DNA of 64,000 nt from an uncultured Gemmatimonadota bacterium (GTDB taxonomy: Bacteria; JAAXHH01): positions 1,856,001 to 1,920,000 of the forward strand of contig OX638340.1 of NCBI GenBank assembly GCA_951812955.1, written 5' to 3'. Both the position numbers and the translations under genes were made by a program. Position 1 is the first letter of the stretch. The number at the start of each line of letters is the position of its first letter. The notes beneath the pieces are model-generated. The model searched no databases, was not told where the DNA came from, and saw nothing but the letters and a program-made list of their open reading frames with translations. Shown in pieces: positions 5,137-29,972 of the stretch.

Positions 5137-6003
5137 ATGAACATTACTTTTCTCGGAACAGCGGCCGCGCCATCGATGCCGATCCCTTTCTGCGTCTGCG
5201 AGGTCTGTTCGGAAGCCAGAAGGGTTGGCGGCAAGAACCTCCGCCGGAGATCGTCGTTGGTAATCAACGATGATCTGCTGGTGGACATCGGTCCGGACAT
5301 CGCGGCCGCGTCATTCCAACAACAAATCTCGCTCGCCGGCATCGGCATATGCCTTCAAACGCACCCGCACGCGGACCATCTGGATATAGGATTTCTCCTC
5401 TCTAGACATACCGAATACGGGACGGAAGTCTCCGGCGACCTGTTGCTTGCTGGCTCAGATGAAACACTGCGCGTGATCGATGATTTTGTGAGTAAACAAA
5501 GTGCGTACGGGAGCATTTTCGATTCGGAAACACAGTCTGCGTTGAAGTTGAAACTTCTATCCCTTACGCCTTTTGAAGCATACAGTATAGATGGATACCA
5601 CATTACCGGATTTCCCGCCAGTCACGGCAACGATCAGGGGTTTCTACTATATTCAATTGTGCAGGGAGACCACGCCGTGTTCTATGGCACCGACACGTCG
5701 GTGCTGTCCGAAGAGGTCTGGGAACACCTTCAGCAGGAACGCACCATGTTTGACGTGGTCATACTCGATCACACCTACGGAATCGGTTTTGAATCCAGGC
5801 CGGCGGACCATCTGGCGTCGAAGGATGTTGCCGCCCACACGGATCGATTCCGCGAATGCGGATTGCTTAAGGACAACGGCTTGGTGTACGCGACTCACCT
5901 GTCTCATGAAGGGAACCTGGTGCACGATGAGTTGGATGAATACGCCAGGAATTTCGGCTATCGAGTGGCCTATGACGGGTTAAGTTTGAAGCTGGATGAC
6001 TGA
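5137..6003 (+). CDS. MBL-fold metallo-hydrolase, PhnP/PqqB-like
   Basis: HxHxDH motif (THPHADHLD). N-terminal CxCxxC (PFCVCEVCSEARR) resembles the PhnP-type structural Zn site. Lies 30 nt after the upstream permease. Confidence 0.8.
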   Translation: MNITFLGTAAAPSMPIPFCVCEVCSEARRVGGKNLRRRSSLVINDDLLVDIGPDIAAASFQQQISLAGIGICLQTHPHADHLDIGFLLSRHTEYGTEVSGDLLLAGSDETLRVIDDFVSKQSAYGSIFDSETQSALKLKLLSLTPFEAYSIDGYHITGFPASHGNDQGFLLYSIVQGDHAVFYGTDTSVLSEEVWEHLQQERTMFDVVILDHTYGIGFESRPADHLASKDVAAHTDRFRECGLLKDNGLVYATHLSHEGNLVHDELDEYARNFGYRVAYDGLSLKLDD

Positions 6004-6078
6004 GTATCGCGCATCTGCGTTGTTCGCGTAACAACCCGGATAACAAATCGTTACTACCTATGGAAAAGACGATTTGAC

Positions 6079-7086
6079 GTGGAATTGGATATGGTATTCG
6101 AGTTGCCGAACCCCGAGTGGCTAAACCGCCAGTATGGTATCTGCTGGGACGGGCAGTACTGCGACATGAGCGGCAACTTTGCCCGTGTAGCCCGGATCGA
6201 GTCGAAGGATGACGGCAAATCGCTCGTCCTACGGATCTCCGACCCCGGTCGCATATCAAAAGAACGGCTGAAACGGGTACACTTGTACCAGACCCACGTG
6301 AATACGCAGGGTGTACGGACGGTCCTTCCGCTGAAGACCCTGGAAGGTGACACCGTTTCCACGACGGTACAGGGAATGACTATGGAGGTCTTTCCATTCA
6401 TCAAGGGGAGATCGCCCCAAAGAGGCAATTCCACGGACATTCGTCGGGTCGGTTGCGAATTAGGCAGACTGCACAGTGCCGGAACCGATTTCTCGCAACT
6501 GTACGACGAGGAAAGTCTGTTTCAAAACCATCTCGCAGTCAACCAGTTGATGGAAGAAGTCCGGGAGAAACGAGAGTCAACCAAGGATAAGATTTTTCAT
6601 GAACAGTTCATCGAGTACGTTGAGGAGACGGAACGCTGGATTGAAGCGATCGAAAGCCGGCGCAGCGGACTGGTTGAAACGGGTCTTCATATGGACACCG
6701 GCCCACAGAACATGATCATCGACAGTGAAGATGAACTCTGGTTTATTGACTGTGCCCATATGGTTAGAGGAAGGCGTGTGTTCGAGATATGCGTTACCCT
6801 GTACTACCTCGACCCCAGTTCTGGTAAACAGTTAGGTGAACCGGCCAGGTATCAACTCGCTGTTGAAAGCGTGGAAGCCGCCTTTCTGGATGGATACACG
6901 GATAACTGCGAACCTCCGTGGAGCGACCAGGAATCGGTGGCACTTGGGATCGAACGCATGCTTATGTTCATCCACGGAGTTACCTACTGGACGGAACGGT
7001 GGGATGAAGATACGGTCCTGAAAGAGTATGGCCGATGGAAAGAGTACCATACCGCCATGAGAGCAGAACTCAATCACATCGTGTAA
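6079..7086 (+). CDS. Phosphotransferase-family kinase (APH/choline-kinase fold)
   Basis: Brenner-type catalytic loop HMDTGPQNMII followed by a metal-binding FIDCAHM segment. About 330 aa, typical of APH/ChoK enzymes. The start could be the ATG at 6091. Confidence 0.7.
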   Translation: MELDMVFELPNPEWLNRQYGICWDGQYCDMSGNFARVARIESKDDGKSLVLRISDPGRISKERLKRVHLYQTHVNTQGVRTVLPLKTLEGDTVSTTVQGMTMEVFPFIKGRSPQRGNSTDIRRVGCELGRLHSAGTDFSQLYDEESLFQNHLAVNQLMEEVREKRESTKDKIFHEQFIEYVEETERWIEAIESRRSGLVETGLHMDTGPQNMIIDSEDELWFIDCAHMVRGRRVFEICVTLYYLDPSSGKQLGEPARYQLAVESVEAAFLDGYTDNCEPPWSDQESVALGIERMLMFIHGVTYWTERWDEDTVLKEYGRWKEYHTAMRAELNHIV

Positions 7087-7148
7087 TACGATTGGAAGAT
7101 CGATACGATGCAGGCAGGATTCACGCCGTGCGATAGAGAAACAACATT

Positions 7149-8054
7149 ATGACACCCATCAATCCAGACTACGTCCGACTGGTGACATCCGATATCGGCA
7201 ACTTCTGGCGGGCATACGACCTGTCGGAAGGCAAAACTACAGAAGAAAAGATCGAAATCTACAATACGGAATACCTGGCTAGAGGTAGCATTGGTCTCCG
7301 GGATTTTGTAGATGCCAGAATCAAGAGCGCCGAAGAGTTGGTCAAGGCTGTTGAGACTATGCCGAAGTTCTATGCTTCTATCAGAGAAAGTTCGAATCGG
7401 GTTCTGGAGATGACAGATCGAATTCGAAGCTATATGCACAACTTCAAGGCCCTTTATGACGATGCGATATTCCCGGACGTGTACTTTCTGATTGGTAGAA
7501 TGAACAGTGGCGGAACAACCTCGCAGAACGGTCTGCTCATAGGGACTGAGATACTATGTCGAACAGACGATACACCCGAAGACGAACTTCCACAGGTGTA
7601 TCGGAAACTTATCAAACCAATAAACTACCTGCCCTATGTGGTTATTCACGAACTCATACATCCCCAGCAGAAGTACAATTTCGAAGGCAACAAGCTCCTG
7701 GGGGGTTCCATAATGGAAGGAGCGGCCGATTTTCTCGGAGAACTTGCCAGCGGAGGACTATTGAACGAGCATCAGCACGAATATGGACGAGTTCACGAAA
7801 CCGAGCTATGGGAAGCGTTTTCTGAAGATATGCTTCAGGATGATTGGAGAAAATGGTTCTATAACTACTCTGATAATACAGGCGATAGGCCTCCCGATAT
7901 GGGATATTACATAGGCTACAAAATATGTGAATCATACTACGAGAAGATGGACGACAAACGGCAGGCCATACGAGACATCCTGGCTGTCAAGGATGCAACA
8001 GACGCACTTCGATTCCTGACAGAAAGTGGATACGGTAAATCGGGCCATCCATGA
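7149..8054 (+). CDS. Putative Zn-dependent protease (DUF2268-like)
   Basis: HExxH motif (VVIHELIHPQQ). About 300 aa and the overall pattern resembles DUF2268 predicted metalloproteases. Confidence 0.6.
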   Translation: MTPINPDYVRLVTSDIGNFWRAYDLSEGKTTEEKIEIYNTEYLARGSIGLRDFVDARIKSAEELVKAVETMPKFYASIRESSNRVLEMTDRIRSYMHNFKALYDDAIFPDVYFLIGRMNSGGTTSQNGLLIGTEILCRTDDTPEDELPQVYRKLIKPINYLPYVVIHELIHPQQKYNFEGNKLLGGSIMEGAADFLGELASGGLLNEHQHEYGRVHETELWEAFSEDMLQDDWRKWFYNYSDNTGDRPPDMGYYIGYKICESYYEKMDDKRQAIRDILAVKDATDALRFLTESGYGKSGHP

Positions 8055-8072
8055 CTTCGACTTGCTCCTTGT

Positions 8073-9215
8073 TTGGCAATGAACGTGCTGCGGAATTGGA
8101 AAGGCAACATGAAATTAAAGTCCAATGAGTCTCTCGATCACCTGGTTCTGCAGCTGGAAGAACAGATCCCTCAGATTATGAGGGAAGCCAACGTTCCTGG
8201 TCTCTCGATCGCGTTGATACAGAATGTGGAAGCGGTTTGGACACATGGCTTCGGCGTAATGAACACGGAAACGCGTCAACCCGTGAAACCGGAAACCATA
8301 TTCGAAGGCTGTTCATTGAGCAAACCGATTTTCGCATATGCCGTGCTTAACCTCTGCGAGACGGGGATTCTGGACTTGGACAAGCCATTGTCCCATTACA
8401 GTCCTGATCCTTATGCGGCCGATGACCCCAGAGTTCAGATGATTACCATGCGACAAGCTCTTGCCCATACTTCCGGTTTACCAAACTGGCGCCCTGACTG
8501 CTGGGATTCAGAAGGATGGAATCCTGAAGGCAAACCTTTGCAAACCTATTTTGAACCCGGCGAACGTTTCAGCTATTCCGGTGAAGGATACATGTACGTG
8601 CAGCATGTGGTTGAGCATATTGCGGGTCAATCCGGCGAGTCTTATATGCAAAACGAGTTGTTCAATCCGGCGGGAATGGAGTTCAGCACGTATCTATGTA
8701 CATCGGATCAAGCCCCTGGTATGGCAACCGGGCATGATGAACACGGGCAACCGGTTAAAAAACAGATGTACAGGTCCATGTGTTCGGCCGCTAGCCTCCA
8801 TTCGACACCTTCGGACGTAGCTAAGATCTTGTGCGCCTGTATGCGACCCCGAACTGGTGCTTCCTGGCACATCAATGCCGAATTGGCGAAGGAAATGGCC
8901 ACCGCCCAGGTCCCGGTAAACGATTCTGCTTCGTGGCATGACAATTGGCCGGATGTCCCGGTAAAGGATGATCCCTTTGTTTCGTGGGGACTCGGTTGGG
9001 CTACTCAATACCATAATGGGCTAAAAGCTATCTGGCATTGGGGAGACAACGGTCCCTTCAAGGCATTTGCATTAGGGTATCCTGAAGAGGGAACAGGTTT
9101 AGTGGCCATGGCCAACGGATCAAATGGTTACAAGCTCTGGTCCGCGTTGTGCAGCATGGCATTGGGCGGAGAGTATCCCTGTATCGACTGGTTGGACCGG
9201 GTGGTGTATAGCTGA
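8073..9215 (+). CDS. Serine hydrolase, beta-lactamase/transpeptidase fold (class C-like/esterase)
   Basis: SxxK nucleophile motif (CSLSKPIF), YSG(E) second motif and WHWGDNG third motif. 380 aa. Start uncertain (alternatives at 8079 and 8109). Confidence 0.8.
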   Translation: MAMNVLRNWKGNMKLKSNESLDHLVLQLEEQIPQIMREANVPGLSIALIQNVEAVWTHGFGVMNTETRQPVKPETIFEGCSLSKPIFAYAVLNLCETGILDLDKPLSHYSPDPYAADDPRVQMITMRQALAHTSGLPNWRPDCWDSEGWNPEGKPLQTYFEPGERFSYSGEGYMYVQHVVEHIAGQSGESYMQNELFNPAGMEFSTYLCTSDQAPGMATGHDEHGQPVKKQMYRSMCSAASLHSTPSDVAKILCACMRPRTGASWHINAELAKEMATAQVPVNDSASWHDNWPDVPVKDDPFVSWGLGWATQYHNGLKAIWHWGDNGPFKAFALGYPEEGTGLVAMANGSNGYKLWSALCSMALGGEYPCIDWLDRVVYS

Positions 9216-9322
9216 TTGCGGGATACTAGTTCGAGACATTGAAGCCTCCGTTTTTGAGCGTAGTGAATTATGCCGTGCTGTAAAGTGGTCTCCAAATACT
9301 GCCTAAATTCAAAGTTGAAACA

Positions 9323-10087
9323 ATGGAAGAATCCCCTGATCGTCCAGTCGCGCTGGTTACAGGCGTGAGCCGAAAAATAGGCATCGGTGCAGCAATCTCT
9401 CTGGCCTTAGCCAAAACAGGTTGGGACGTGGCCACTTCTTACTGGCAACCGTACGATGCTTCCATGCCATGGGGTAGCGACGATACCGAAGCCGGAAAAA
9501 TCACTGATCAGATCCGTGGCTTCTCCGCAAGGACGGTTTCCATTGAAGCCGACCTTTCAGACACCGCGTCACCGAAGCGTATTTTTGATCGTATCGAAAG
9601 TTCACTTGGATCAGTAACCGCTCTAGTTATGGCTCATTGTCATTCGGTAGACAGCAGCATTAAGTCCACCACAATCGAGAGTTTCGATTTGCATTTTACT
9701 GTAAACGCTCGAGCTACATGGCTGCTGATCCGGGAGTTCGGGAGACGTTACCGAAATGAATATGGGCGGGGCCGTGTTATCTCGATAACCAGCGATCATA
9801 CTACGCACAACTTGCCTTACGGGGCCAGCAAAGGAGCCATGGATCGGATCGTCCTCGCGGCAGCGCAGGAATTCAGGGAACTGGGAGTCACGGCAAATGT
9901 TATCAATCCGGGTGGAACAGACACGGGTTGGATGTCGGATGATCTGAAGGAACGCGTACAAAGTGAGACACCGTTGGGCCGAATCGGCTTGCCTGCAGAC
10001 TGTGCCTGTCTTGTCAGTTTCCTCTGTTCCGAAGAGGGTGAATGGATCAACGGCCAGTTAATTTACAGCAATGGCGGTGTTCGGTAA
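9323..10087 (+). CDS. SDR-family oxidoreductase
   Basis: Rossmann motif TGVSRKIGIGAAI and catalytic YGASKGA (YxxxK). 254 aa. Confidence 0.85.
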   Translation: MEESPDRPVALVTGVSRKIGIGAAISLALAKTGWDVATSYWQPYDASMPWGSDDTEAGKITDQIRGFSARTVSIEADLSDTASPKRIFDRIESSLGSVTALVMAHCHSVDSSIKSTTIESFDLHFTVNARATWLLIREFGRRYRNEYGRGRVISITSDHTTHNLPYGASKGAMDRIVLAAAQEFRELGVTANVINPGGTDTGWMSDDLKERVQSETPLGRIGLPADCACLVSFLCSEEGEWINGQLIYSNGGVR

Positions 10088-10216
10088 GGATATGGTCGTT
10101 GAAACAAGCGGCACATGCATTCCGCTTAACAGAAGGGTTTGCGTGGCGGAGATTCACTCTGGGCTCGCAATGCACGAGTTTCCGTAAGAATAAGATCAGT
10201 CCGAGAGGCCCAATGT

Positions 10217-10744
10217 ATGAAATGGGACTATTACCGTCCTCATATAGACCGAAGAGTCCCGGGAAACAAAGTTGACCTGACTCCCTTGTGTAACGAATCC
10301 GAAGTTCGCAGGAACCTGATCCTGGATCTCGCCCGTCCCTTCCGCAACGTCGATCTGGACAAGGTAGCGAGTCCGGAATCGTTGGGATTCATCCTGGGCA
10401 GTGCGGTAGCCCAAAAGCTGAACAGGGGCTTCATTCCATTTCGTAAAGGGGGAGAACTACCCATCCATCGTCAGCACAGGTCGAGGGTCTCTTTTGTAGA
10501 CTATACCAGTGAGCGGAAATCCCTGGAGGTAAACAAAGACCTTATTCAACCTGAGGAACGCATTCTGATCGTGGATGATGTGATAGATACAGGTGCCCAG
10601 GTAACGGCCATGATTAAGTTGATCGAACGTCTACGTGGCGAAGTCGTTGGTGCTTCGGTACTTGTCGCCGACAGGAGCCCGAGAACAGCTCGTCTCATAG
10701 ACAAGTACAACGTACATGCTATCTATATGCCCATCATCGATTAA
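10217..10744 (+). CDS. Type I phosphoribosyltransferase (adenine PRTase-like)
   Basis: PRPP-binding loop ILIVDDVIDTGAQV and APRT-like GFIPFRKGGELP. The ORF opens at 10139, but the ATG at 10217 (MKWDYY) gives a typical length. Confidence 0.75.
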   Translation: MKWDYYRPHIDRRVPGNKVDLTPLCNESEVRRNLILDLARPFRNVDLDKVASPESLGFILGSAVAQKLNRGFIPFRKGGELPIHRQHRSRVSFVDYTSERKSLEVNKDLIQPEERILIVDDVIDTGAQVTAMIKLIERLRGEVVGASVLVADRSPRTARLIDKYNVHAIYMPIID

Positions 10745-10917
10745 ATGGGCACTGCGGAGACGGAGACAAGCCCTTCCGGAAAACCATCTGGTCAAAGGCT
10801 CGGATGAGATTCAGATTGTTAACGTCGTTTCACTTGCATCAACGCAGAGCAGCATCGAAGGCGTAAAACGGATGTCGCAGGCATCTTTAAACAAAAACAT
10901 TCCGCAGGTATCTGAAA

Positions 10918-11367
10918 ATGTCCACCGAATCTGATAAACAGCGCGTATACAACGGTGCGTATGGTTTGTGTCGTGACCCATCAGACCGCTTGCTCCTGGT
11001 TCGTGTAACAAGCGGATTGGCGGATGCCGGACTATGGACATTGCCTGGCGGTGGTATCGAATGGGGAGAGCACCCGGAAGACGCTTTACTTCGGGAATTG
11101 GAAGAAGAGACAGGCATTGTGGATATTGAAAGGTATCGGTTGGCTGCGGTTTATTCCCAGGTGTATGATAATCCGGCATATCGGGCGGACGACTCGGTAC
11201 ATCACATTGGATTGGTCTACGATGTTACGCTCGTAGCGTTCAGCCTCAGGGACGAAAAAGACGGTTCGACTGATCACTGCGAGTGGTTTACCGAAAGTCA
11301 GGCTCGACTATTGCCGCTTGGGCAACTGGGTGAATTTGGCGTCGAACTGGCTTGGCCAAAATCATGA
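10918..11367 (+). CDS. NUDIX hydrolase
   Basis: Canonical Nudix box GGGIEWGEHPEDALLRELEEETG. Confidence 0.85.
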   Translation: MSTESDKQRVYNGAYGLCRDPSDRLLLVRVTSGLADAGLWTLPGGGIEWGEHPEDALLRELEEETGIVDIERYRLAAVYSQVYDNPAYRADDSVHHIGLVYDVTLVAFSLRDEKDGSTDHCEWFTESQARLLPLGQLGEFGVELAWPKS

Positions 11368-11390
11368 TACGCTCACAAAACTAGAATGGC

Positions 11391-11765
11391 GTGAAACAAA
11401 CAGGTGCGCTAATGACACGAGCTCCGATTAAAGAACCCATCGCATTCGAAGACTTCGAAAAACTCGACATTCGGGCCGGTACGATCACTTCGGTCCGGGA
11501 AGTGGCCAATTCGAACAAGCTCATGAAGCTGGTTGTCGACTTCGGTGATCACACCCGTTCAATTCTGGCCGGAATAAAGAAGGAACGTGCAAACCCTCAG
11601 GAAATCGAAGGTAAGCAAGCACTCTTTTTGCTGAACCTGGCCGACAGGAAAATGGCAGGCGAGATTTCGCAGGGAATGCTCTTCGATATCGGCTATGCGG
11701 ACGGACTTACCCCGTGCCTCCTGGTACCCGAAATGCCTGTGCCAGATGGCGCGCGGGCTGGATGA
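11391..11765 (+). CDS. tRNA-binding domain protein (CsaA/EMAP-like)
   Basis: About 120 aa. FEKLDIRAGTITSVREV...KLMKLVVDFGD...ILAGIKK...GEISQGMLF matches the OB-fold tRNA-binding domain pattern. Alternative ATG at 11412. Confidence 0.75.
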   Translation: MKQTGALMTRAPIKEPIAFEDFEKLDIRAGTITSVREVANSNKLMKLVVDFGDHTRSILAGIKKERANPQEIEGKQALFLLNLADRKMAGEISQGMLFDIGYADGLTPCLLVPEMPVPDGARAG

Positions 11766-11846
11766 AAAGTGCCTTCTTGGGATGGTAGGTAGTAAAGATT
11801 GAGATTAGGGTTGTGCCAGTCTGGTCTGGCACCAAGGACGGGCATC

Positions 11847-12650
11847 ATGAATCAACCATTCGATGAAGCGGTAGAGGCCATTATAACCGGGGACGCAGCC
11901 ACCCTGACGAAGCTGTTGGTGGCACATCCCGATCTCATCAAGGCCCGGTCCCGGTCCGATCACAAGGCGACCCTGCTGCACTATGTGGCTGCCAATGGCG
12001 TCAAGGACGAGCTGCAAAAATCGCCGGAGAATGCCGCGGAAATCGCCCGGATACTGCTCGAGGCCGGGGCGGAGGTCGACACCCTCGCCGAAACATACGG
12101 TGGGGGCACGAACCAGACGACGCTATGCCTGCTGGTTTCCAGTATACATCCGGCGGCAGCGGGTGTGCAGCCGGCGCTGGTGCAGGTTTTATGTGATGCG
12201 GGCGCGGCTGTTAACGGAGTCGCTGATGACGGGGCGCCACTGGGAACCGCGTTGCTGTTCAGCTATAGGAAGTCGGTCGATATGCTGGCGAGGTGCGGCG
12301 CGCGCATCGATAATCTGCTTTTCGCCGCCGGCGTGGGCGACCTCGCGAGGGTGAAGTCCTTTCTCCACACAGACGGCCGGCTAAGACCCGAGGGGATGTA
12401 CCATGGGTCCCATCTCCCATCCCCTGCCGATGAGAAGTCACAGGTCGACCTGGCATTCGGCCTGGCCTGCTATCACTTGAGGATCGAAGTGATCCGGTTC
12501 CTCCTTGAAATGGGCGTGGATGTCAATGTTCGTTCGAACATTTTCGGTAGCATGCAAACCGGTCTATACTGGGCAACCCACGGTTTCCATACGGAGGAAG
12601 AGGAGCGCCCTGTCGTTGCGTTTCTGCAGTCACAGGGTGCTACCTCGTAA
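11847..12650 (+). CDS. Ankyrin-repeat protein
   Basis: Repeated ankyrin-like units (ATLLHYVAANGV...IARILLEAGAEVD; ...LVQVLCDAGAAVN; ...VIRFLLEMGVDVN). ATG at 11847 preferred over the TTG at 11799. Confidence 0.65.
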   Translation: MNQPFDEAVEAIITGDAATLTKLLVAHPDLIKARSRSDHKATLLHYVAANGVKDELQKSPENAAEIARILLEAGAEVDTLAETYGGGTNQTTLCLLVSSIHPAAAGVQPALVQVLCDAGAAVNGVADDGAPLGTALLFSYRKSVDMLARCGARIDNLLFAAGVGDLARVKSFLHTDGRLRPEGMYHGSHLPSPADEKSQVDLAFGLACYHLRIEVIRFLLEMGVDVNVRSNIFGSMQTGLYWATHGFHTEEEERPVVAFLQSQGATS

Positions 12651-20016: not shown

Positions 20017-22422
20017 ATGCTCCAAAACTACCTCACCATAGCCATTCGCAACCTGCTCAGGTATCCCGCCTACACGCTCATCAACATCGTGGGGCTCGCG
20101 ATCGGCCTGGCGGCCTGCATGCTGATCCTGCGCTACGTCTGGGACGAGATGAGCTACGATCGGTATCATCCACACGCAGATCGGGTTTACCGGGTAGTCG
20201 ATGACATAGAAAGCGCGGGGCAGACAGTCCAGACGGCGGGATCTCCTTTGGGGTGGGGGCCCGCTCTGAAGCGTGATTTTCCCGAAATCGAGCTTTTCGC
20301 CCGGGTGCGGGGCACGACATCCGTCTGGTTTATCATGCATGAAGAGAAACGTTACTATGAGAAAAAGGTCATCTGGGCGGATGCGGCTCTGCTCGACATG
20401 TTTTCCATCCCCTTTGTCGCCGGCAATCCCCGTACCGCGCTGACCGAACCGTATTCGATCGTGATCTCGGAGGATATGGCCTTCAAGTATTTCGGTGGCG
20501 AGGACCCCATGGGGAAAGTCCTCAGGGGGGACAATGTCTGGGATTTCACGGTGACCGGCGTCATGCGCAACATACCGGCCAATTCCCATCTGCGTCCTGA
20601 TATGATCATGTCCCTTGTGACACGGAATGCCATTTTTGCAAATGACCTCGATGAATGGGAGATGCACGAGAATCGTTATACTTACATCAGGCTGCATGAA
20701 AACGCCTCTCCGGATGCCCTGGAAGCTCAGCTGCCCGCCTTCGTGGAACGAAATAAAACCGGGCGGTTCCGTGATTCGAGCAAAGTGTTGAGACCGTCTC
20801 TGCAGCCCCTGGTGGACATTCACCTCCATTCGCACAGGGACAGCGAGCTCGAGCCCAACGGAGACATCCGCTACGTAACGCTCTTCATGATTATCGCCTT
20901 CCTGATTCCTATCATCGCCTGCATCAACTTCGTGAACCTGGCCACGGCACGATCGGCCATGCGCGCCAGGGAGGTGGGCGTACGCAAGGTTATGGGGGCC
21001 AATCGCCCGCAGCTACTGGGGCAGTTCCTGGGCGAAGCCGTCGTCATGGCGGGACTTGCCATGATCGTCGCGGTCGCGCTTGTACATCTAGCCCTGCCCG
21101 GCGTAAACGTGCTGGCCGGCAAGCAACTGGATTTTGCTCTTTCGGACGGCTGGGTGTTGGGAGCGCTGATCGCTGGAACCATCGTTATCGCAATGGCTGC
21201 CGGTAGCTATCCCGCAACCTACCTATCTGGTTTCCTGCCCACCGATGTACTGAAAGGGAATCTGAAGTCAGGAACGCAAGGCATGGGATTGCGGCGGACC
21301 CTGGTGGTGATCCAGTTCGTCATGTCCATCTTTCTGCTGGTCAGCACCGCCGTCATCTACGACCAGCTCGAGTACATCCAGGACATGAGGCTCGGTTTCA
21401 ATAAAGAGCATGTAATGGTGATCCCGATTACCGGCCAGGCTCAGCGCGAAAACACCCCGGTGCTGAGACAACGCGTCGCGCAGTTGCCCGGCGTGGTAGG
21501 GATAGCGACGACCGATGGCGTCCCGGGCGAACTCTCACCGCGGATTATGGCCGTCCGTTCCGATGAGATGAGCCCCGAGGACAACCTGATTGTGTCTGTG
21601 TTCTCCTCAGATGATCAGTTCCTGGAGGTCATGGAAATCGGCCTGGTGGCAGGCCGGAACTTTCAGGCCGAGTGGGGCAGGGATACAACCATGGTAGTCC
21701 TGCTGAACGAGACCGCTGCCCGTAAGCTGGGTTGGGATGCGCCGCCCGACGCAATAGGTATGCTTGTGGAATGGATCGAGTACCGCGGTACGAAGGGACG
21801 CGTCCGGGGTGTTGTGGAGGATTTTCATCTGCAATCGATTCATGAGGAAATCGAACCGATCGTATACATACACTATCCCATCGACTTCAGCGACATACTC
21901 ATCCGAATCAGGCCGGAAAACGTACCGGATACCATCACACGGATCCAGGAAGTGTGGCGGGAAGTCGAACCCCTGTATCCTCTGGCATATACGTTTCTCG
22001 ACGAAGATTTCGACAGCCTCTACCGTGCCGAACGCCAACTGGGTACGGTATTCGCGGTCTTCGCCTTTCTCGCGATCTTCGTGGCGTGCCTGGGCCTGCT
22101 TGGACTGGCTTCCTTCTCCATCCAGCAGCGGACCAGGGAGATTGGAATCCGCAAGGTACTCGGCGCTACCGTTTCGGACATCGTCCTGCTGCTCTCAAAG
22201 GATTTCATGAAGTATGTACTACTGGCCAATGTGATCGCCTGGCCCCTGGCATACCTTGCCATGGCACAATGGCTGCAGAACTATGCCTATGCGGCGGAAA
22301 TCAACTTTGCGTGGTTTATCGCGGGAGGCCTCGTTGCGGTCGCCATCGCCTGGCTTACGATCGGGGCGCACGCGCTGGCCGCCGCGGGCAGAAACCCGGT
22401 TAACGCACTAAGGCAGGGGTGA
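20017..22422 (+). CDS. Duplicated-FtsX ABC-type permease (MacB/ADOP-like), close paralog of 1-2142
   Basis: 801 aa with two FtsX modules (ACINFVNLATARSAMRAREVGVRKVMGA; FSIQQRTREIGIRKVLGA). The C-terminus AWLTIGAHALAAAGRNPVNALRQG is nearly identical to that of 1-2142. Confidence 0.9.
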   Translation: MLQNYLTIAIRNLLRYPAYTLINIVGLAIGLAACMLILRYVWDEMSYDRYHPHADRVYRVVDDIESAGQTVQTAGSPLGWGPALKRDFPEIELFARVRGTTSVWFIMHEEKRYYEKKVIWADAALLDMFSIPFVAGNPRTALTEPYSIVISEDMAFKYFGGEDPMGKVLRGDNVWDFTVTGVMRNIPANSHLRPDMIMSLVTRNAIFANDLDEWEMHENRYTYIRLHENASPDALEAQLPAFVERNKTGRFRDSSKVLRPSLQPLVDIHLHSHRDSELEPNGDIRYVTLFMIIAFLIPIIACINFVNLATARSAMRAREVGVRKVMGANRPQLLGQFLGEAVVMAGLAMIVAVALVHLALPGVNVLAGKQLDFALSDGWVLGALIAGTIVIAMAAGSYPATYLSGFLPTDVLKGNLKSGTQGMGLRRTLVVIQFVMSIFLLVSTAVIYDQLEYIQDMRLGFNKEHVMVIPITGQAQRENTPVLRQRVAQLPGVVGIATTDGVPGELSPRIMAVRSDEMSPEDNLIVSVFSSDDQFLEVMEIGLVAGRNFQAEWGRDTTMVVLLNETAARKLGWDAPPDAIGMLVEWIEYRGTKGRVRGVVEDFHLQSIHEEIEPIVYIHYPIDFSDILIRIRPENVPDTITRIQEVWREVEPLYPLAYTFLDEDFDSLYRAERQLGTVFAVFAFLAIFVACLGLLGLASFSIQQRTREIGIRKVLGATVSDIVLLLSKDFMKYVLLANVIAWPLAYLAMAQWLQNYAYAAEINFAWFIAGGLVAVAIAWLTIGAHALAAAGRNPVNALRQG

Positions 22423-22433
22423 TTTCGCGGAAA

Positions 22434-23024
22434 TTACACGACGTTCCGAGACTGGGTATCCGAGGCGTTCCAGCAAGTCTCGATCACATTAAAATCAGGT
22501 CGGGACAGGACAACGTAGGAAGGGAGTCCCAACTGTTTCCACATCGCGAATGGGTCCTGGCGAGTAATGCGGCTCACATACAGGCTCAGAACGGTCCCAT
22601 GGGTAATGAGCGCCAGGTCTTCTTGCGGAAATCGTTCTAACAGTCCGTCGACGGACTTTGAGAATCTTCTGTACGCTGTATCCGCGGTCTCCTCGCCAAA
22701 AACCAGCTCCGCAGGTTGAGCGTAGAAACGGCTGATCGACTGCTCAAAGCACTCCTTCTCCAGGAAACCGACACTCCTACGCTCATGTTCCTGCAATCCC
22801 TCGATGACTTCTACCGGAACATTCAGTCTGTGCGCTGAAATATTGGCTGTTTCTATGGCTTTAGGTTCGTTGCTACTGAATATCATATCCAGATTATACG
22901 GTCCCAGTTTCTCAGCCAAGATCCGGGAGCGGACTTGACCTTCTTCAGACAAACGCCATTCCCTGGAAGGAACCGCAGGATCGATCTCAGGCAACGAATG
23001 CTTCACCAGAACCAGTACCGGCAT
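22434..23024 (-). CDS. Histidine phosphatase-family protein (PGAM/SixA-like)
   Basis: N-terminal LVLVKHSLPE (RHG-like with the catalytic His kept), SSNEPKAIETA and a distal LITHGTV. AAGGAGG lies 10 nt upstream of the ATG. Confidence 0.65.
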   Translation of the reverse strand: MPVLVLVKHSLPEIDPAVPSREWRLSEEGQVRSRILAEKLGPYNLDMIFSSNEPKAIETANISAHRLNVPVEVIEGLQEHERRSVGFLEKECFEQSISRFYAQPAELVFGEETADTAYRRFSKSVDGLLERFPQEDLALITHGTVLSLYVSRITRQDPFAMWKQLGLPSYVVLSRPDFNVIETCWNASDTQSRNVV

Positions 23025-23046: not shown

Positions 23047-24153
23047 CTACGGCGTATTCACCGGAAAGTGCTTGATCATTCTGATGATCTTCAACTCTGT
23101 TCCCGACGGCATCTCCGAACTACCATGGTGCAGTTGTCGAAAGCCGTTTTTCTCGTAGAACTCCACGGCTGCAAGCGAAGAATTGAGTACGATACGCTCC
23201 GCGCCTGCGCGCATGGCCTGGCATTCCGCTGTTCTGTAAAGTGCCGAACCGACTCCTTTTTTACTCGCCCTGCCGGAAACGAAAACCGCGGCATTGTACT
23301 CAGTACCCTTTGCCCGATGCACCTCGGAGAATCCCAGTAATCCCGTGGCATCTTCGGCCACATAGATTGTCGCTCCCTGCGCAACGGCACCAAGGTACTT
23401 CTCTCGAGATATCGGAGCGATCCACTCCTCGAGAACCTCCATGGCGTAGTAAGGTCCGCAATGGGATCTTATCGATTCTTCGTGTATGATTGCTAGTTCG
23501 TCAAAGTCGGCCTCAGTCGCGCGGCGGACACAGTAGGAGCGTTTAGCCATTTCGACCATCTGCGTGAGTGCGCGGGGATGCTGGTGGTTTTCGAGCGCTT
23601 TTAAAACCCGTGCGGAAGCGTCCTCCGGTGCTTCGGCGGAAGTATCCACCTCGACGTCATAGACCGCGTACCTGTGCACCTGTTCGTACTGGTTTCTCGC
23701 CAGGCCTATAGTCCGATCTCCCCTCGCGACTTCCCTTCGTTCCAATTCATCGAGCGGACAGAAAACCTTCACAAACAGCACATCGAAAGGGCTGAGAATT
23801 TTCACACGATGACGTAACAGATCCAGGACATCGAACTCTTGCCCTGCCGGCAGATGCTGAGGTGGAGCGATAACATCGTCGACGATCACATTGTTACCGC
23901 TGCGGGCCAAGGCCGCGATGCACTCCGCAAACCCCATCTCGAAGTAACGGATGTCGGGGACCAACCCGCGCTTGATCTGTTTGCGCGAAGGAATCTCGTC
24001 GAACAGGTTGATGGAAAAATAGAGGAACGGTTCCTGCAGCACGTCGAGCAACGCCTCAGCCAGCGTCGTCTTCCCAGCGCTCGACGATCCATTGAGATAA
24101 ATCACACTGCCGCTGCGACTAGGGGTTTTCAAGTGCTCAACGTGGGATTTCAT
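23047..24153 (-). CDS. Fusion protein: chloramphenicol-phosphotransferase-like P-loop kinase + GNAT acetyltransferase
   Basis: The N-terminal half matches the CPT family (IYLNGSSSAGKTTLAEAL...VIVDDV...). The C-terminal ~160 aa is GNAT (AAVFVSGRASKKGVGSALY...FYEKNGF). The ORF opens at 24177 (TTG), but the ATG at 24153 forms an ATGA overlap with the upstream stop. Confidence 0.75.
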   Translation of the reverse strand: MKSHVEHLKTPSRSGSVIYLNGSSSAGKTTLAEALLDVLQEPFLYFSINLFDEIPSRKQIKRGLVPDIRYFEMGFAECIAALARSGNNVIVDDVIAPPQHLPAGQEFDVLDLLRHRVKILSPFDVLFVKVFCPLDELERREVARGDRTIGLARNQYEQVHRYAVYDVEVDTSAEAPEDASARVLKALENHQHPRALTQMVEMAKRSYCVRRATEADFDELAIIHEESIRSHCGPYYAMEVLEEWIAPISREKYLGAVAQGATIYVAEDATGLLGFSEVHRAKGTEYNAAVFVSGRASKKGVGSALYRTAECQAMRAGAERIVLNSSLAAVEFYEKNGFRQLHHGSSEMPSGTELKIIRMIKHFPVNTP

Positions 24154-24761
24154 TCTGAAGTCCATTCGCTGGGCCAACTTCCGAGTCGTCGTTCAAAGTA
24201 CAGTTCTAAACCGTCCTCTTCATCAATATGTGAGCCGATTTCCCGAAATCCCATCGACCGAGCCATGCCCAGGGATGGGATGTTACCTGGGTTGATAGAC
24301 AGGACGAAACAACGTTGACCATGTTCTTCATACGCCCATTTCATCAACGCAAGCGCCGCTTCGTTGGCGATGCCCCGTCTGCGGAAGGGTTCTCCAATTT
24401 CGTAGCCGAGTTCTACCCCATCTGCCGCTACATTTCGCAGATCCTCGGGACCGGGCTCGGAGTGGAAGCCGATCCGACCACACATAGTCTGTGACTGTTG
24501 AATGACTATGGCCCGCAACAACCAGGGCTGTACCTCTGGACTGGCATTGAGTTGTCTTAGCCGATTTCGTAAAGTACGGGTGTTGAGAACAAGGTCTATC
24601 GGAATCTTAAAGCCGGCGATCTTCTCTGCCAGCAGTTGATTCCGGGCTATCAACGCTTCCAGCAGTCGCGGGGCCATCGGAACCAATTCCAGCCGACGTG
24701 AGGTAATGATGTGGATTATTGGCTGTTCTCCGTTCGTCACCAGTGTTACAGAGAGGAACAA
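24150..24761 (-). CDS. GNAT N-acetyltransferase (RimJ/RimL-like)
   Basis: ITSRRLELVPMAP N-terminus typical of the RimL-like subfamily, plus GYEIGEPFRRRGIANEAALALMKWAYE. The exact start is uncertain (TTG at 24761). Confidence 0.75.
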   Translation of the reverse strand: MFLSVTLVTNGEQPIIHIITSRRLELVPMAPRLLEALIARNQLLAEKIAGFKIPIDLVLNTRTLRNRLRQLNASPEVQPWLLRAIVIQQSQTMCGRIGFHSEPGPEDLRNVAADGVELGYEIGEPFRRRGIANEAALALMKWAYEEHGQRCFVLSINPGNIPSLGMARSMGFREIGSHIDEEDGLELYFERRLGSWPSEWTSE

Positions 24762-24826: not shown

Positions 24827-26245
24827 CTACTCCCTGATTCCACACGCCTCGTCCGTCAGCACGTCGTAGTGATGTATGTACTTGACGCCGTCGATCACGA
24901 GCCGATCGGTTTGTGGTAGATCCTCCTCCCACGTCATTTCGACTCCCTGCAAATGGGGTGGCTTCTCCCGCTTGCCCCAGTGATTGCCGTTGTAGCGCCG
25001 GAACAGCAGCGTGCGGCCAGCGCGGGTGACGTACGCCATGACCAACACCGCTCGTTCGGACGTATCTTCGTCGATATCGAAAACCCGCATGCATTCGAAT
25101 GTCCGATCGCCGATGCACACCGTGTAGAGGCCCTGTGAAAACACCAGCGGCGCATCCGATTTCTTAATGAACGTTCCATCCGGTTGTTCCGTCAGGTAAT
25201 CCCGGTCTTCGACCAGACGGGGCGTCATCCCGAAATCCCATCCAAAGTCCTCGTCCAGGCAGGTCAGAAGTTCCCTGGTTCCATCGGATTTCATGCTCTC
25301 GACGGCCAGCCAATGCACCTCCGTCTCTTCCAGGCGGCCCCAGACCCGGGTATGGCGATCCCTCGTTTCCGGATCATGGTTGAGCGTTAGGAGACCCTCC
25401 CGGTCTGGACGGCGTTGTTCATCCATCTCGATCTCTACGCATGGTCTTCCGTGTATGATGGCGCGCCGCGTTGCAACCATGTCCTTGACCTCGGTTAACT
25501 TCCAGGCCGAACCATCCCGCGTAGGCTCGTAATCCGCCCATCGGACCTGATCACCGATTTCGGGTACGATGAACCACCAGGACAGCTCCCGAAGATCTAT
25601 GGAAAATGGAGTTGCCGTACTTATCTCGATGGATATATCGGGCCGGTAATTGGGAAAGGGTACAGTCGTAGCTTTTGTGTCGTCGCTCATGGCCATGCTC
25701 CTTCTATTGGTGGTTACACCCAGTTCGATTCGAACCATGTCCCGTCCGTGAGACAGCCGCCGCTCGATGGTTCCCGGTGGGCAGCGATGACGGGCCGCAA
25801 TTTCCGCTATGCTCAATCCATCCAGGTAGAACGACCTCAGGGCCGCTTGTTCCTTATCGGGCACGTGATCGAAGGCTTCGACCACATCCTTCGCTGCCCG
25901 CCGTTGACGGGCCGTCGGCACACCGAATCGATTAATCATCGTTGCCAGTTCCTCGGAATCGACGAAGCGCTCTCGCCGTTGTGTAGAGCGCATGAAGTCG
26001 ACGCAGCGGTTGCGCGCAACCTGGTACAGCCAGGCGCGCACGTTTCTCGGTGATCGAACACGCAACCCCAACCAGGCATGAACGAGCGTCTCCTGTAGCA
26101 CGTCCTCTACCGCCTCCACCGACCCGATACGATCCCGGATCAATGCGGCCAGAGATCGCTCGTAGCGCCGGATCAGGGCCACGAAGGCCCGTTCGTCGCC
26201 GGTCCGGATCTGTTGAACAAGTACCTGGTCACTGAGGAACCCCAT
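24827..26245 (-). CDS. ECF-type sigma-70 factor with ~280-aa C-terminal extension of unknown function
   Basis: Region 2 (FVALIRRYERSL...DVLQETLVHAWL...WLYQVARNRCVDFMR) and region 4 (FYLDGLSIAEIAARHRCPPGTIERRLSHGR) lie within the first ~185 aa. The remaining ~285 aa are soluble with no TM segment and no family I recognise. Confidence 0.8.
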   Translation of the reverse strand: MGFLSDQVLVQQIRTGDERAFVALIRRYERSLAALIRDRIGSVEAVEDVLQETLVHAWLGLRVRSPRNVRAWLYQVARNRCVDFMRSTQRRERFVDSEELATMINRFGVPTARQRRAAKDVVEAFDHVPDKEQAALRSFYLDGLSIAEIAARHRCPPGTIERRLSHGRDMVRIELGVTTNRRSMAMSDDTKATTVPFPNYRPDISIEISTATPFSIDLRELSWWFIVPEIGDQVRWADYEPTRDGSAWKLTEVKDMVATRRAIIHGRPCVEIEMDEQRRPDREGLLTLNHDPETRDRHTRVWGRLEETEVHWLAVESMKSDGTRELLTCLDEDFGWDFGMTPRLVEDRDYLTEQPDGTFIKKSDAPLVFSQGLYTVCIGDRTFECMRVFDIDEDTSERAVLVMAYVTRAGRTLLFRRYNGNHWGKREKPPHLQGVEMTWEEDLPQTDRLVIDGVKYIHHYDVLTDEACGIRE

Positions 26246-29108: not shown

Positions 29109-29180
29109 TTTGGGGCAGATTGTTCAAATCACGCTTGGAAGTACAGATATGCACAATTGGGTATCGGAAAGGAGCTTCAT

Positions 29181-29972
29181 ATGATCATCCACAAACTGGT
29201 CGCAGCCACTTGCATGATCGGTCTGGGAATGTACGGCTGTTCCTCTTCAGAGATTCCTGAGGACCCGCCGGTCCAGACCGAGCAGGTCGCATGGGGATAC
29301 GGTGACGAGAACGGACCGGACGTCTGGGGCCAGTTAAGCCCGGATTTCGCCTTATGTGCCGAGGGATCGCTGCAATCTCCGATCGACCTTGCGAATGCCA
29401 CGTCGTCGGAACTTCCCGAAATCGTCTTCAACTATAGTCCGTCGGCGGTGAATATCCACCATAACGGCCACACGATTGAAGTGGCGCCCACCGGGGAAAA
29501 CTCGATTGAGATCGATGGTGTACGTTACGCGCTTCTGCAGTTCCATTTCCACGCTCCGAGCGAGCACTCGGTGGACGGCCGGTTATTCGACATGGAAATG
29601 CACCTCGTGCACCGGAACGAAGAAGGCACCCTGGCAGTTATCGGAGTTCTGATCGAGCAGGGCGCCGACAATGCGACGTTCGGTCCCCTGTGGACGAATA
29701 TGCCGGACACGCCCGGCGTAACGAACAGCGTAGAGAACGCCACCGTTGATGCCGGCGACTTGCTGCCGGGCGACAGGCAGACCTATCGCTATGACGGCTC
29801 GTTGACTACACCGCCGTGTTCAGAAGGTGTCAAATGGAACGTGCTGACAACGCCCATTGAACTGTCCGAACCGCAGATCGCCGCTTTCAAAGCAGTTGTC
29901 CATGACAACAATCGGCCGGTACAGCCGCTGAATGAGCGTGAACTGCTTTCGGATGGTGCTGGAGAAGGCTAG
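29181..29972 (+). CDS. Alpha-class carbonic anhydrase, probable lipoprotein
   Basis: QSPIDL, zinc ligands in QFHFHAPSEH and EMHLVH, and GSLTTPPCSEGV. Lipobox-like LGMYGC. AAGGAG lies 6 nt upstream of the ATG at 29181; the ORF opens at 29157. Confidence 0.9.
   Translation: MIIHKLVAATCMIGLGMYGCSSSEIPEDPPVQTEQVAWGYGDENGPDVWGQLSPDFALCAEGSLQSPIDLANATSSELPEIVFNYSPSAVNIHHNGHTIEVAPTGENSIEIDGVRYALLQFHFHAPSEHSVDGRLFDMEMHLVHRNEEGTLAVIGVLIEQGADNATFGPLWTNMPDTPGVTNSVENATVDAGDLLPGDRQTYRYDGSLTTPPCSEGVKWNVLTTPIELSEPQIAAFKAVVHDNNRPVQPLNERELLSDGAGEG

Follow-up and report, generated by a model that had tools for sequence, protein, structure and literature searches.

The minus strand of the 64,000-nucleotide stretch analyzed here (contig OX638340.1 of an uncultured Gemmatimonadota bacterium, positions 1,856,001 to 1,920,000; hereafter the window) encodes, at positions 23047..24153, a single protein in which a P-loop domain related to chloramphenicol phosphotransferase (CPT) is followed in frame by a GCN5-related N-acetyltransferase (GNAT) domain. 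This fusion is an uncharacterized variant of two known families, and its chief point is the clade-specific replacement of a catalytic residue, with asparagine at the position of Asp37 of CPT. The interpretation that we favor, with a probability of roughly 0.55, is that the protein is a pair of autonomous small-molecule-modifying modules, fused through adjacency of their genes in a variable accessory island; it would thus be a two-domain accessory enzyme restricted to the Gemmatimonadota lineage. The features on which the argument is built are given below, with residues numbered on the 368-amino-acid product; residue positions of Pfam matches in the text follow the numbering of a longer, 376-amino-acid reading.

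23047..24153, minus strand: coding sequence of the CPT-like::GNAT fusion, 368 amino acids, ATG start, stop TAG at 23047-23049
23593..24111, minus strand: CPT-like P-loop domain, residues 15-187, from PF07931 and PDB/Foldseek matches
24067..24090, minus strand: Walker A motif or P-loop GSSSAGKT, residues 22-29, aligned with GGSSAGKS of CPT
24007..24009, minus strand: Asn49 (codon AAC), at the position of CPT Asp37 in the HMMER alignment to CPT
23998-24000, minus strand: Asp52, three residues past Asn49, read from the sequence
23872..23889, minus strand: VIVDDV, Walker-B-like DD motif, residues 89-94, with D92 invariant in the alignment of CPT-like proteins
23830-23868, minus strand: clade-specific insertion of about 12 residues after the DD motif, APPQHLPAGQEFD, seen in comparison with other CPT-like proteins
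23713..23742, minus strand: lid ERREVARGDR with conserved arginines, residues 138-147, aligned with EGRETARGDR of CPT
23533..23592, minus strand: C-terminal tail of the CPT-like domain and inter-domain linker, residues 188-207, with a helix at 195-203 and a predicted local distance difference test score (pLDDT) of 77-81
23068..23532, minus strand: GNAT acetyltransferase domain, residues 208-362, from Pfam and Foldseek
23236-23265, minus strand: predicted acetyl-CoA loop SKKGVGSALY, within the GNAT domain
23140-23160, minus strand: FYEKNGF, within the GNAT domain

The initial annotation, which did not mention that the gene lies on the minus strand, had described a single fused gene, and this description is borne out by Pfam, which places a CPT match and then an in-frame GNAT match in one uninterrupted open reading frame (ORF). 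In the ORF list this frame spans 23047..24177 of the minus strand without a break and yields 376 amino acids from a TTG codon. The ATG at 24153 forms an ATGA overlap with the stop codon of the upstream GNAT gene, other in-frame starts being present at 24177 (TTG), 24165 (ATG) and 24132 (TTG), and an identical 368-amino-acid product has been called in public data (P0290, NCBI and ENA, 3.8-Mb contig). Orthologues are 359-377 amino acids long and differ slightly in where they begin, which leaves some doubt about the precise N-terminus, a point that is immaterial here. Of the orthologues, only MCY3713443.1 (NCBI) was found to bear a name, the generic "GNAT family N-acetyltransferase [Gemmatimonadota bacterium]". 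The same in-frame CPT and GNAT architecture is shared by 13 clusters (built at 90% identity) that are 73-92% identical to the window protein and were recovered from numerous independent assemblies, some of them on contigs as long as 3.5, 5.3 and 5.9 Mb, and the fusion is present in at least four genomic contexts. The recurrence of one in-frame junction in so many independent assemblies excludes an artefact, of which a frameshift or sequencing error had been put forward as a caveat in the initial annotation, whereby two adjacent genes are joined through a sequencing or assembly frameshift or a lost stop codon. No support for such an artefact was found; some relatives do carry single-domain genes, but these are deletion derivatives with remnants of the missing half, and we regard the artefact as vanishingly improbable.

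Selection on the two halves was assessed by pairwise Nei-Gojobori comparison of the window with the loci for which DNA was retrieved. The ratio of nonsynonymous to synonymous divergence (dN/dS) was 0.09-0.13 for the CPT half and 0.14-0.22 for the GNAT half, rising to about 0.46 in the 20-codon linker. The low values in both halves indicate that both encode functional protein, and the synonymous divergence (dS), which is as high as 1.2-1.6 among the compared loci, indicates that the fusion junction is old.

The N-terminal half was matched over the full length of the CPT family model, a match whose absence had been the other caveat of the initial annotation (PF07931, residues 23-195, profile positions 1-171 of 172, E=2.7e-43, 148.2 bits against a cut-off of 22), and both motifs quoted there, NGSSSAGKTT and VIVDDV, are found in the protein. 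A phmmer search of the PDB retrieved CPT (1QHX/1GRQ) at E=7.8e-18. An AlphaFold2 model, computed from a 60-sequence alignment with a mean pLDDT of 89.3 and a predicted template-modeling score (pTM) of 0.72, shows two folded domains, the first closest to Streptomyces venezuelae CPT (Foldseek, 1QHS, target TM 0.79) and the second to GNAT structures (2FIW, target TM 0.86). The signatures of P-loop kinases are all present (a Walker A motif of the form GxxxxGK[ST], an acidic Mg-site motif and lid arginines); in the alignment of CPT-like proteins K28 of Walker A is invariant, and R140, E141, R144 and R147 of the lid are nearly so. With these motifs intact and strongly constrained by purifying selection, the domain, though a divergent representative of the CPT-like P-loop family, would still bind ATP and Mg.

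Membership in the family does not amount to orthology with CPT. The score against the CPT equivalog model NF033114 (NCBIfam) is 85.2 bits, below the 250-bit cut-off, and identity to the solved S. venezuelae enzyme is about 30% (Foldseek). The N-terminal half is a member of the CPT-like family and no CPT orthologue; what survives of its initial designation as a CPT-like kinase is the CPT-family P-loop domain. A chloramphenicol resistance enzyme, that is, a true CPT to which an acetyltransferase has been added so that chloramphenicol is inactivated twice, was rejected as the default reading because Asp37 is missing and the equivalog score is too low. The domain does find its best match in CPT, both in Pfam and in the PDB, but the low identity and the insertion of 12 residues adjacent to the active site also argue against this explanation, which we consider very improbable. 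Chloramphenicol offers no free amine to an N-acetyltransferase, and no chloramphenicol acetyltransferase is known to be a GNAT.

Asp37, at the end of strand 2, serves CPT as its catalytic general base, and Izard and Ellis are reported to have described in 2000 how it activates the hydroxyl group of the acceptor. In a MAFFT alignment of the 231 CPT-like proteins gathered in this analysis, the Asp37 column holds Asp in 210 sequences, Glu in 2 and Asn in 19. All of the Asn residues fall within the fusion's own clade, and their bearers are the window protein, the 13 fusion clusters, four CPT-only relatives and the free-standing protein P0121. Among the sequences inspected by eye, this clade alone has an Asp three residues further on (NLFDE, Asp52 in the window protein); the nearest Asp-bearing outgroup (P0122, P0128, P0132) has Glu at that position and remoter members have unrelated residues. 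In a neighbor-joining tree of CPT domains, P0017 groups with the free-standing P0121 lineage (a cluster of 32 members, from genomes of 5.8-7.1 Mb) outside the fusion clade, and as both are of the Asn type, the change from Asp to Asn is older than the fusion. In the favored interpretation, the acceptor chemistry of the N-terminal domain would have been altered, the Asp having been lost ahead of the fusion and a clade-only Asp being present three residues on. Strong purifying selection argues that the domain is not decaying, and from the sequence we infer three options for it: the base may have moved to Asp52, the acceptor may be one that requires no base (for example an anionic one), or ATP may be bound or hydrolyzed without phosphotransfer. 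With Asn at the Asp37 position and no CPT orthology, the term kinase would be an assumption when applied to this domain, and chloramphenicol an unlikely substrate. A clade-specific exchange of Asp for Asn that is maintained under purifying selection represents a natural experiment on changing the chemistry of a P-loop transferase. Searches for published literature on PF07931 or on the CPT catalytic base identified no relevant work in the searchable literature.

The third of these options leads to an explanation in which the N-terminal domain has ceased to be a kinase. As a module that binds or hydrolyzes ATP, it would gate or regulate the GNAT domain or supply it with substrate, resulting in an ATP-dependent acetyltransferase loosely comparable to TmcA/NAT10; alternatively, it would only sequester a ligand. 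Such a role is suggested by the uniform presence of Asn in the clade against the prevalence of Asp elsewhere, by the retention of all nucleotide-binding motifs under strong purifying selection, and by analogy with the zeta and PezT toxins (PF06414), related P-loop phosphotransferases that have a catalytic Asp at the equivalent position (Asp67/Asp66), where it is needed to deprotonate the substrate (PMC6362051). Asn-type proteins are, however, abundant in free-standing form (the P0121 cluster and P0017), and since these predate the fusion, their function would be independent of any GNAT domain; CPT-only derivatives of the fusion also persist, and the clade-specific Asp at +3 could serve as the base. 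On balance we hold this explanation to be quite doubtful. The window protein itself differs from the zeta and PezT toxins in that it has no Zeta_toxin match, no antitoxin gene, no PADLOC match and no Asp at the equivalent position; several CPT-like relatives match the Zeta_toxin model weakly (Pfam). A defense or toxin-antitoxin role was considered and rejected, as neither the fusion nor its three neighbors were matched in PADLOC and Zeta_toxin was not among the Pfam matches.

The C-terminal half is matched by Acetyltransf_10, Acetyltransf_7 and Acetyltransf_1 at residues 245-349 (E=4e-12 to 1e-8), with 46.6, 44.5 and 35.7 bits against cut-offs of 23.6, 27 and 20.7, respectively. Compared with the pattern (Q/R)-x-x-G-x-(G/A) of the pyrophosphate-binding loop of GNATs, its predicted acetyl-CoA loop reads S-K-K-G-V-G, keeping G-x-G and having Ser in the first position, and orthologues mostly show S/T/N-R-K-G-V-G. 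GNATs have a Tyr general acid in the beta5-alpha4 region; the Tyr of FYEKNGF, a candidate for this role, is found in 13 of the 14 fusion sequences (in the window protein and in 12 of 13 orthologues) and is replaced by Cys in P0003. The Foldseek neighbors of this half are generic and comprise uncharacterized GNATs, RimI-like proteins, phosphinothricin and methionine-sulfoximine acetyltransferases, PaiA and PA4794. Free-standing proteins of the same GNAT subfamily are known at 44-56% identity (P0124, P0268-P0271, P0129), and in P0020 the same subfamily is joined to a methyltransferase. The C-terminal domain is best described as an Acetyltransf_10-type GNAT that putatively transfers an acetyl group from acetyl-CoA to the amine of a small molecule. 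Under the interpretation of two independent modules, each domain would work autonomously on a xenobiotic, an antibiotic or a metabolite, and the single polypeptide would have arisen through gene adjacency in an island packed with genes of this kind.

Evidence in favor of such autonomy comes from derivatives of the fusion that retain a single domain (the proteins P0014-P0016 and the loci L003, L004, L005 and L006/L007). The CPT-only proteins P0014, P0015 and P0016 are nested within the fusion clade of the CPT-domain tree, each beside a different fusion protein, which indicates three independent losses of the GNAT domain. In L003, the locus of P0014, the frame ends in RQATESE and a stop codon and is directly followed by ATGATCAAGCACTTTGCGGTGAGTGACCCGTAG, which translates as MIKHFAVSDP and a stop, the C-terminal end of the fusion protein; this remnant after the new stop codon shows that the GNAT domain was removed by internal deletion. 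The CPT half has been lost as well. The GNAT-only proteins P0264 (L004, at the same syntenic locus) and P0265 (L005, at another locus) share 75-78% identity with the GNAT half, and vestiges of the C-terminal CPT tail can be read ahead of their start codons (TRTLAQVIEM and HPRAVAQRVDM). In L006/L007 a GNAT that carries a frameshift and has 88% identity to this half stands without CPT beside the same histidine phosphatase gene that adjoins the fusion in the window. Either half has thus disappeared on about three occasions, with the surviving half under similar constraint, and this repeated loss of one half or the other makes the fusion look like an evolutionarily labile, loose and lineage-specific arrangement rather than a tightly coupled machine. 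As it stands, the gene encodes an accessory enzyme of soil Gemmatimonadota in which either half shows clear signs of dispensability.

A HMMER scan of 1.84 billion representatives clustered at 50% identity recovered 3811 relatives at E<=1e-3, and among the best 150 of these the full-length fusion occurs in one cluster only (P0002). A scan of genome contigs for close relatives yielded no orthologue, only distant GNAT matches. Five other CPT/GNAT fusions, in both domain orders and with different GNAT subfamilies, were found in databases and confirmed with Pfam:

P0127: Acetyltransf_10 followed by CPT (the reverse order)
P0096: GNAT followed by CPT; its contig carries a dockerin cellulase gene as well, so the host is probably Clostridia-like
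P0111: Acetyltransf_3 followed by CPT
P0240: CPT followed by Acetyltransf_3
P0118: CPT followed by Acetyltransf_1

The catalytic Asp is kept in all five, and each forms a singleton or a two-member cluster, none having spread, which fits sporadic and weakly selected fusion events. The initial annotation had pointed to no characterized CPT::GNAT arrangement and had suggested a check of domain architectures. The former point stands, as no characterized precedent, no solved chain spanning both domains (phmmer, Foldseek) and no paper on such a protein was found in the PDB or the searchable literature; the architecture, on the other hand, is not unique.

The recurrence of such fusions bears on whether the two domains cooperate. 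In a coupled bifunctional enzyme, the idea raised in the initial annotation, the P-loop domain would phosphorylate and the GNAT domain acetylate the same molecule or consecutive intermediates, either to confer dual-modification resistance to an amino-alcohol-like or amino-acid-like antibiotic or as a two-step enzyme similar to N-acetylglutamate synthase/kinase. In total, at least six independent CPT-like/GNAT fusions in both orders, involving at least three GNAT subfamilies and at least two phyla (Gemmatimonadota and the Clostridia-like contig), are consistent with this explanation, as are the pairing in P0127 of the same Acetyltransf_10-type GNAT with CPT in reversed order, the location of free-standing relatives also amid GNAT genes, and the pTM and pLDDT values of the predicted model, which suggest some defined inter-domain packing. 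Nevertheless, either domain has been lost alone at the same locus in close relatives, leaving the other intact and similarly constrained, the other fusions amount to singletons or two-member clusters, the architecture is confined to a single 50%-identity cluster among the best 150 of 3811 relatives, and the density of GNAT genes in the islands increases the rate at which fusions would arise by chance. We view coupling as possible but unlikely.

Several observations nonetheless weigh against autonomous modules that were merely joined by adjacency. The fusion has persisted through a dS of approximately 1.2-1.6 and is thus more than merely transient. GNAT is the commonest fusion partner of CPT-like domains here and accounts for six independent cases, while UPF0158 and a peptidoglycan-binding domain account for one apiece; this recurrence hints at a functional, or at least genomic, association with CPT-like domains, exceeds what random fusion of neighbors would produce and could reflect real functional coupling. 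In addition, with Asn at the position of the base, the N-terminal domain may not be a transferase at all. A more specific proposal, which we regard as speculative and rather unlikely, is that the Asn-type clade, free-standing and fused alike, consists of neofunctionalized P-loop phosphotransferases, acting on an anionic carboxylate or phosph(on)ate acceptor, which requires no general base, or using Asp52 as a relocated base, and that in the fusion they cooperate with GNAT in a two-step acetylation and phosphorylation, in either order, of one amino-acid-like or antibiotic substrate. The fusion would then represent the P-loop counterpart of N-acetylglutamate synthase/kinase, or else a dual-modification resistance enzyme of a new kind. 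More generally, if the domains cooperate, the protein would be the first P-loop-kinase/GNAT dual-modifying enzyme, and would provide a handle on a CPT-like family (the 3811 representatives) that is almost wholly uncharacterized, the S. venezuelae enzyme being the only one studied.

The window protein can be compared with several known systems. With S. venezuelae CPT (1QHX/1QHS/1GRQ; PF07931) it shares the P-loop kinase fold, the Walker A and DD motifs and the lid RExARGDR; it differs in the Asn for Asp37, the insertion of about 12 residues, the C-terminal GNAT domain and the sequence identity of about 30%, as well as in its host, which as far as the window shows is no antibiotic producer and has no biosynthetic cluster nearby. 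A biosynthetic gene cluster was discarded as an explanation because no core biosynthetic gene is present among the window neighbors of the fusion, which include genes for a major facilitator superfamily (MFS) transporter, a haloacid dehalogenase-like (HAD) protein, a methyltransferase, a GNAT, a HIT protein, an extracytoplasmic function (ECF) sigma factor, a MacB-like permease, an esterase and a carbonic anhydrase. AAC(6')-Ie/APH(2'')-Ia and other bifunctional aminoglycoside-modifying enzymes combine a GNAT and an ATP-dependent phosphotransferase in one polypeptide; they probably derive from the fusion of adjacent resistance genes, and their domains would be largely independent, the scenario favored here for the window protein as well. 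Their kinase, however, has the eukaryotic-protein-kinase-like APH fold (PF01636) and follows the GNAT domain, whereas in the window protein, in which Pfam finds no PF01636 match, the kinase-like half is of the P-loop type and comes first. Bifunctional N-acetylglutamate synthase/kinase resembles it in domain order, with an N-terminal kinase and a C-terminal GNAT that catalyze consecutive steps, but has an amino-acid-kinase fold rather than a P-loop; N-acetylglutamate kinase phosphorylates an anionic carboxylate acceptor and requires no general base. Among arginine-pathway models (NCBIfam), the only match was a GNAT-level one for a neighboring gene. In TmcA/NAT10 a P-loop NTPase, which is a RecD-like helicase module and not a kinase, is fused to a GNAT domain together with RNA-binding domains; the presence of a P-loop NTPase and a GNAT in one chain is the shared trait, and the helicase and RNA-binding Pfam models are unmatched in the window protein.

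The fusion belongs to a same-strand run of genes that converges on a MacB-like permease:

24827-26245, minus strand: ECF-type sigma factor, 472 amino acids, with sigma regions 2 and 4 in the first 175 or so residues
24150..24761, minus strand: Acetyltransf_3 GNAT, the upstream neighbor of the fusion, 203 amino acids, PF13302 at E=8.7e-15
22434..23024, minus strand: His_Phos_1 protein, the downstream neighbor, 196 amino acids, E=5.3e-17, 22 nucleotides past the fusion stop and with GGAGG upstream
20017-22422, plus strand: MacB-like permease, 801 amino acids, with MacB_PCD and FtsX duplicated, 82-90% identical in relatives

The frame that extends from the ECF sigma factor to the permease is syntenic in L001, L003, L004 and L015-17, and the cargo between them varies, the permease marking one boundary of the variable island. 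The closest relatives, L015-17, carry the same fusion and phosphatase, and L001, L003 and L004 have a protein of 343/353 amino acids and unknown function plus a glyoxalase in place of the phosphatase. The fusion is found at other loci in L002, beside an aminoglycoside phosphotransferase (APH) gene, and in L018, amid methyltransferase, GrpB, HAD, GNAT and NUDIX genes. Genes for GNAT, methyltransferase, HAD, HIT, NUDIX, APH, GrpB and glyoxalase proteins surround every copy, and this neighborhood of small-molecule-modifying enzymes is the sole constant of the context. The phosphatase adjoins the fusion in L015-17 and the GNAT-only remnant in L006/L007 and is absent from L001-L004 and L018; as it occurs only in L015-17 and L006/L007, a conserved kinase-GNAT-phosphatase operon was rejected as a general arrangement.

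The neighbors themselves show some additional particularities. The upstream Acetyltransf_3 GNAT, intact in the window, appears to be decaying in relatives: it is absent in L001, is truncated at the 5' end in L015-17 (3594-3998, residues 55-202 left), and in L003 (7447-8010) has a frame that is 83% identical, yet no gene is called. The histidine phosphatase has KHS (LVLVKHSLP) instead of the catalytic RHG of the family, a substitution kept in all five relatives examined (83% identity), and may be a variant or altered-specificity phosphatase. The C-terminal extension of the ECF sigma factor, about 290 residues long, has no Pfam match and is kept at 78-80% identity; this sigma factor could regulate the downstream GNAT, fusion and phosphatase genes. 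In L006/L007 (4942-6024), where the GNAT frameshift lies between residues 259 and 260, the cassette of GNAT and histidine phosphatase directly follows a NUDIX gene, a layout that is consistent with deletion of the segment comprising ECF sigma factor, GNAT and CPT from an L015-like arrangement, and a Zeta_toxin/ParD-like pair is located near the cassette. In L011, the free-standing Asn-type CPT-like protein P0279 is directly preceded by a 196-amino-acid gene without a Pfam match (4390-4980); a second gene of 196 amino acids, likewise without a Pfam match (9527-10117), precedes a NUDIX gene 4.5 kb away, and three GNAT genes lie within 10 kb. The accessory region of the window also encodes an alpha-class (eukaryotic-type) carbonic anhydrase (29157-29972, plus strand, Pfam E=7.8e-43). 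Elsewhere in the window, the stretch at approximately 6000-12000 has a GC content of 0.50-0.52 and a GC skew of 0.06-0.08, against a GC content of 0.57-0.65 over most of the window, and may have been horizontally acquired.

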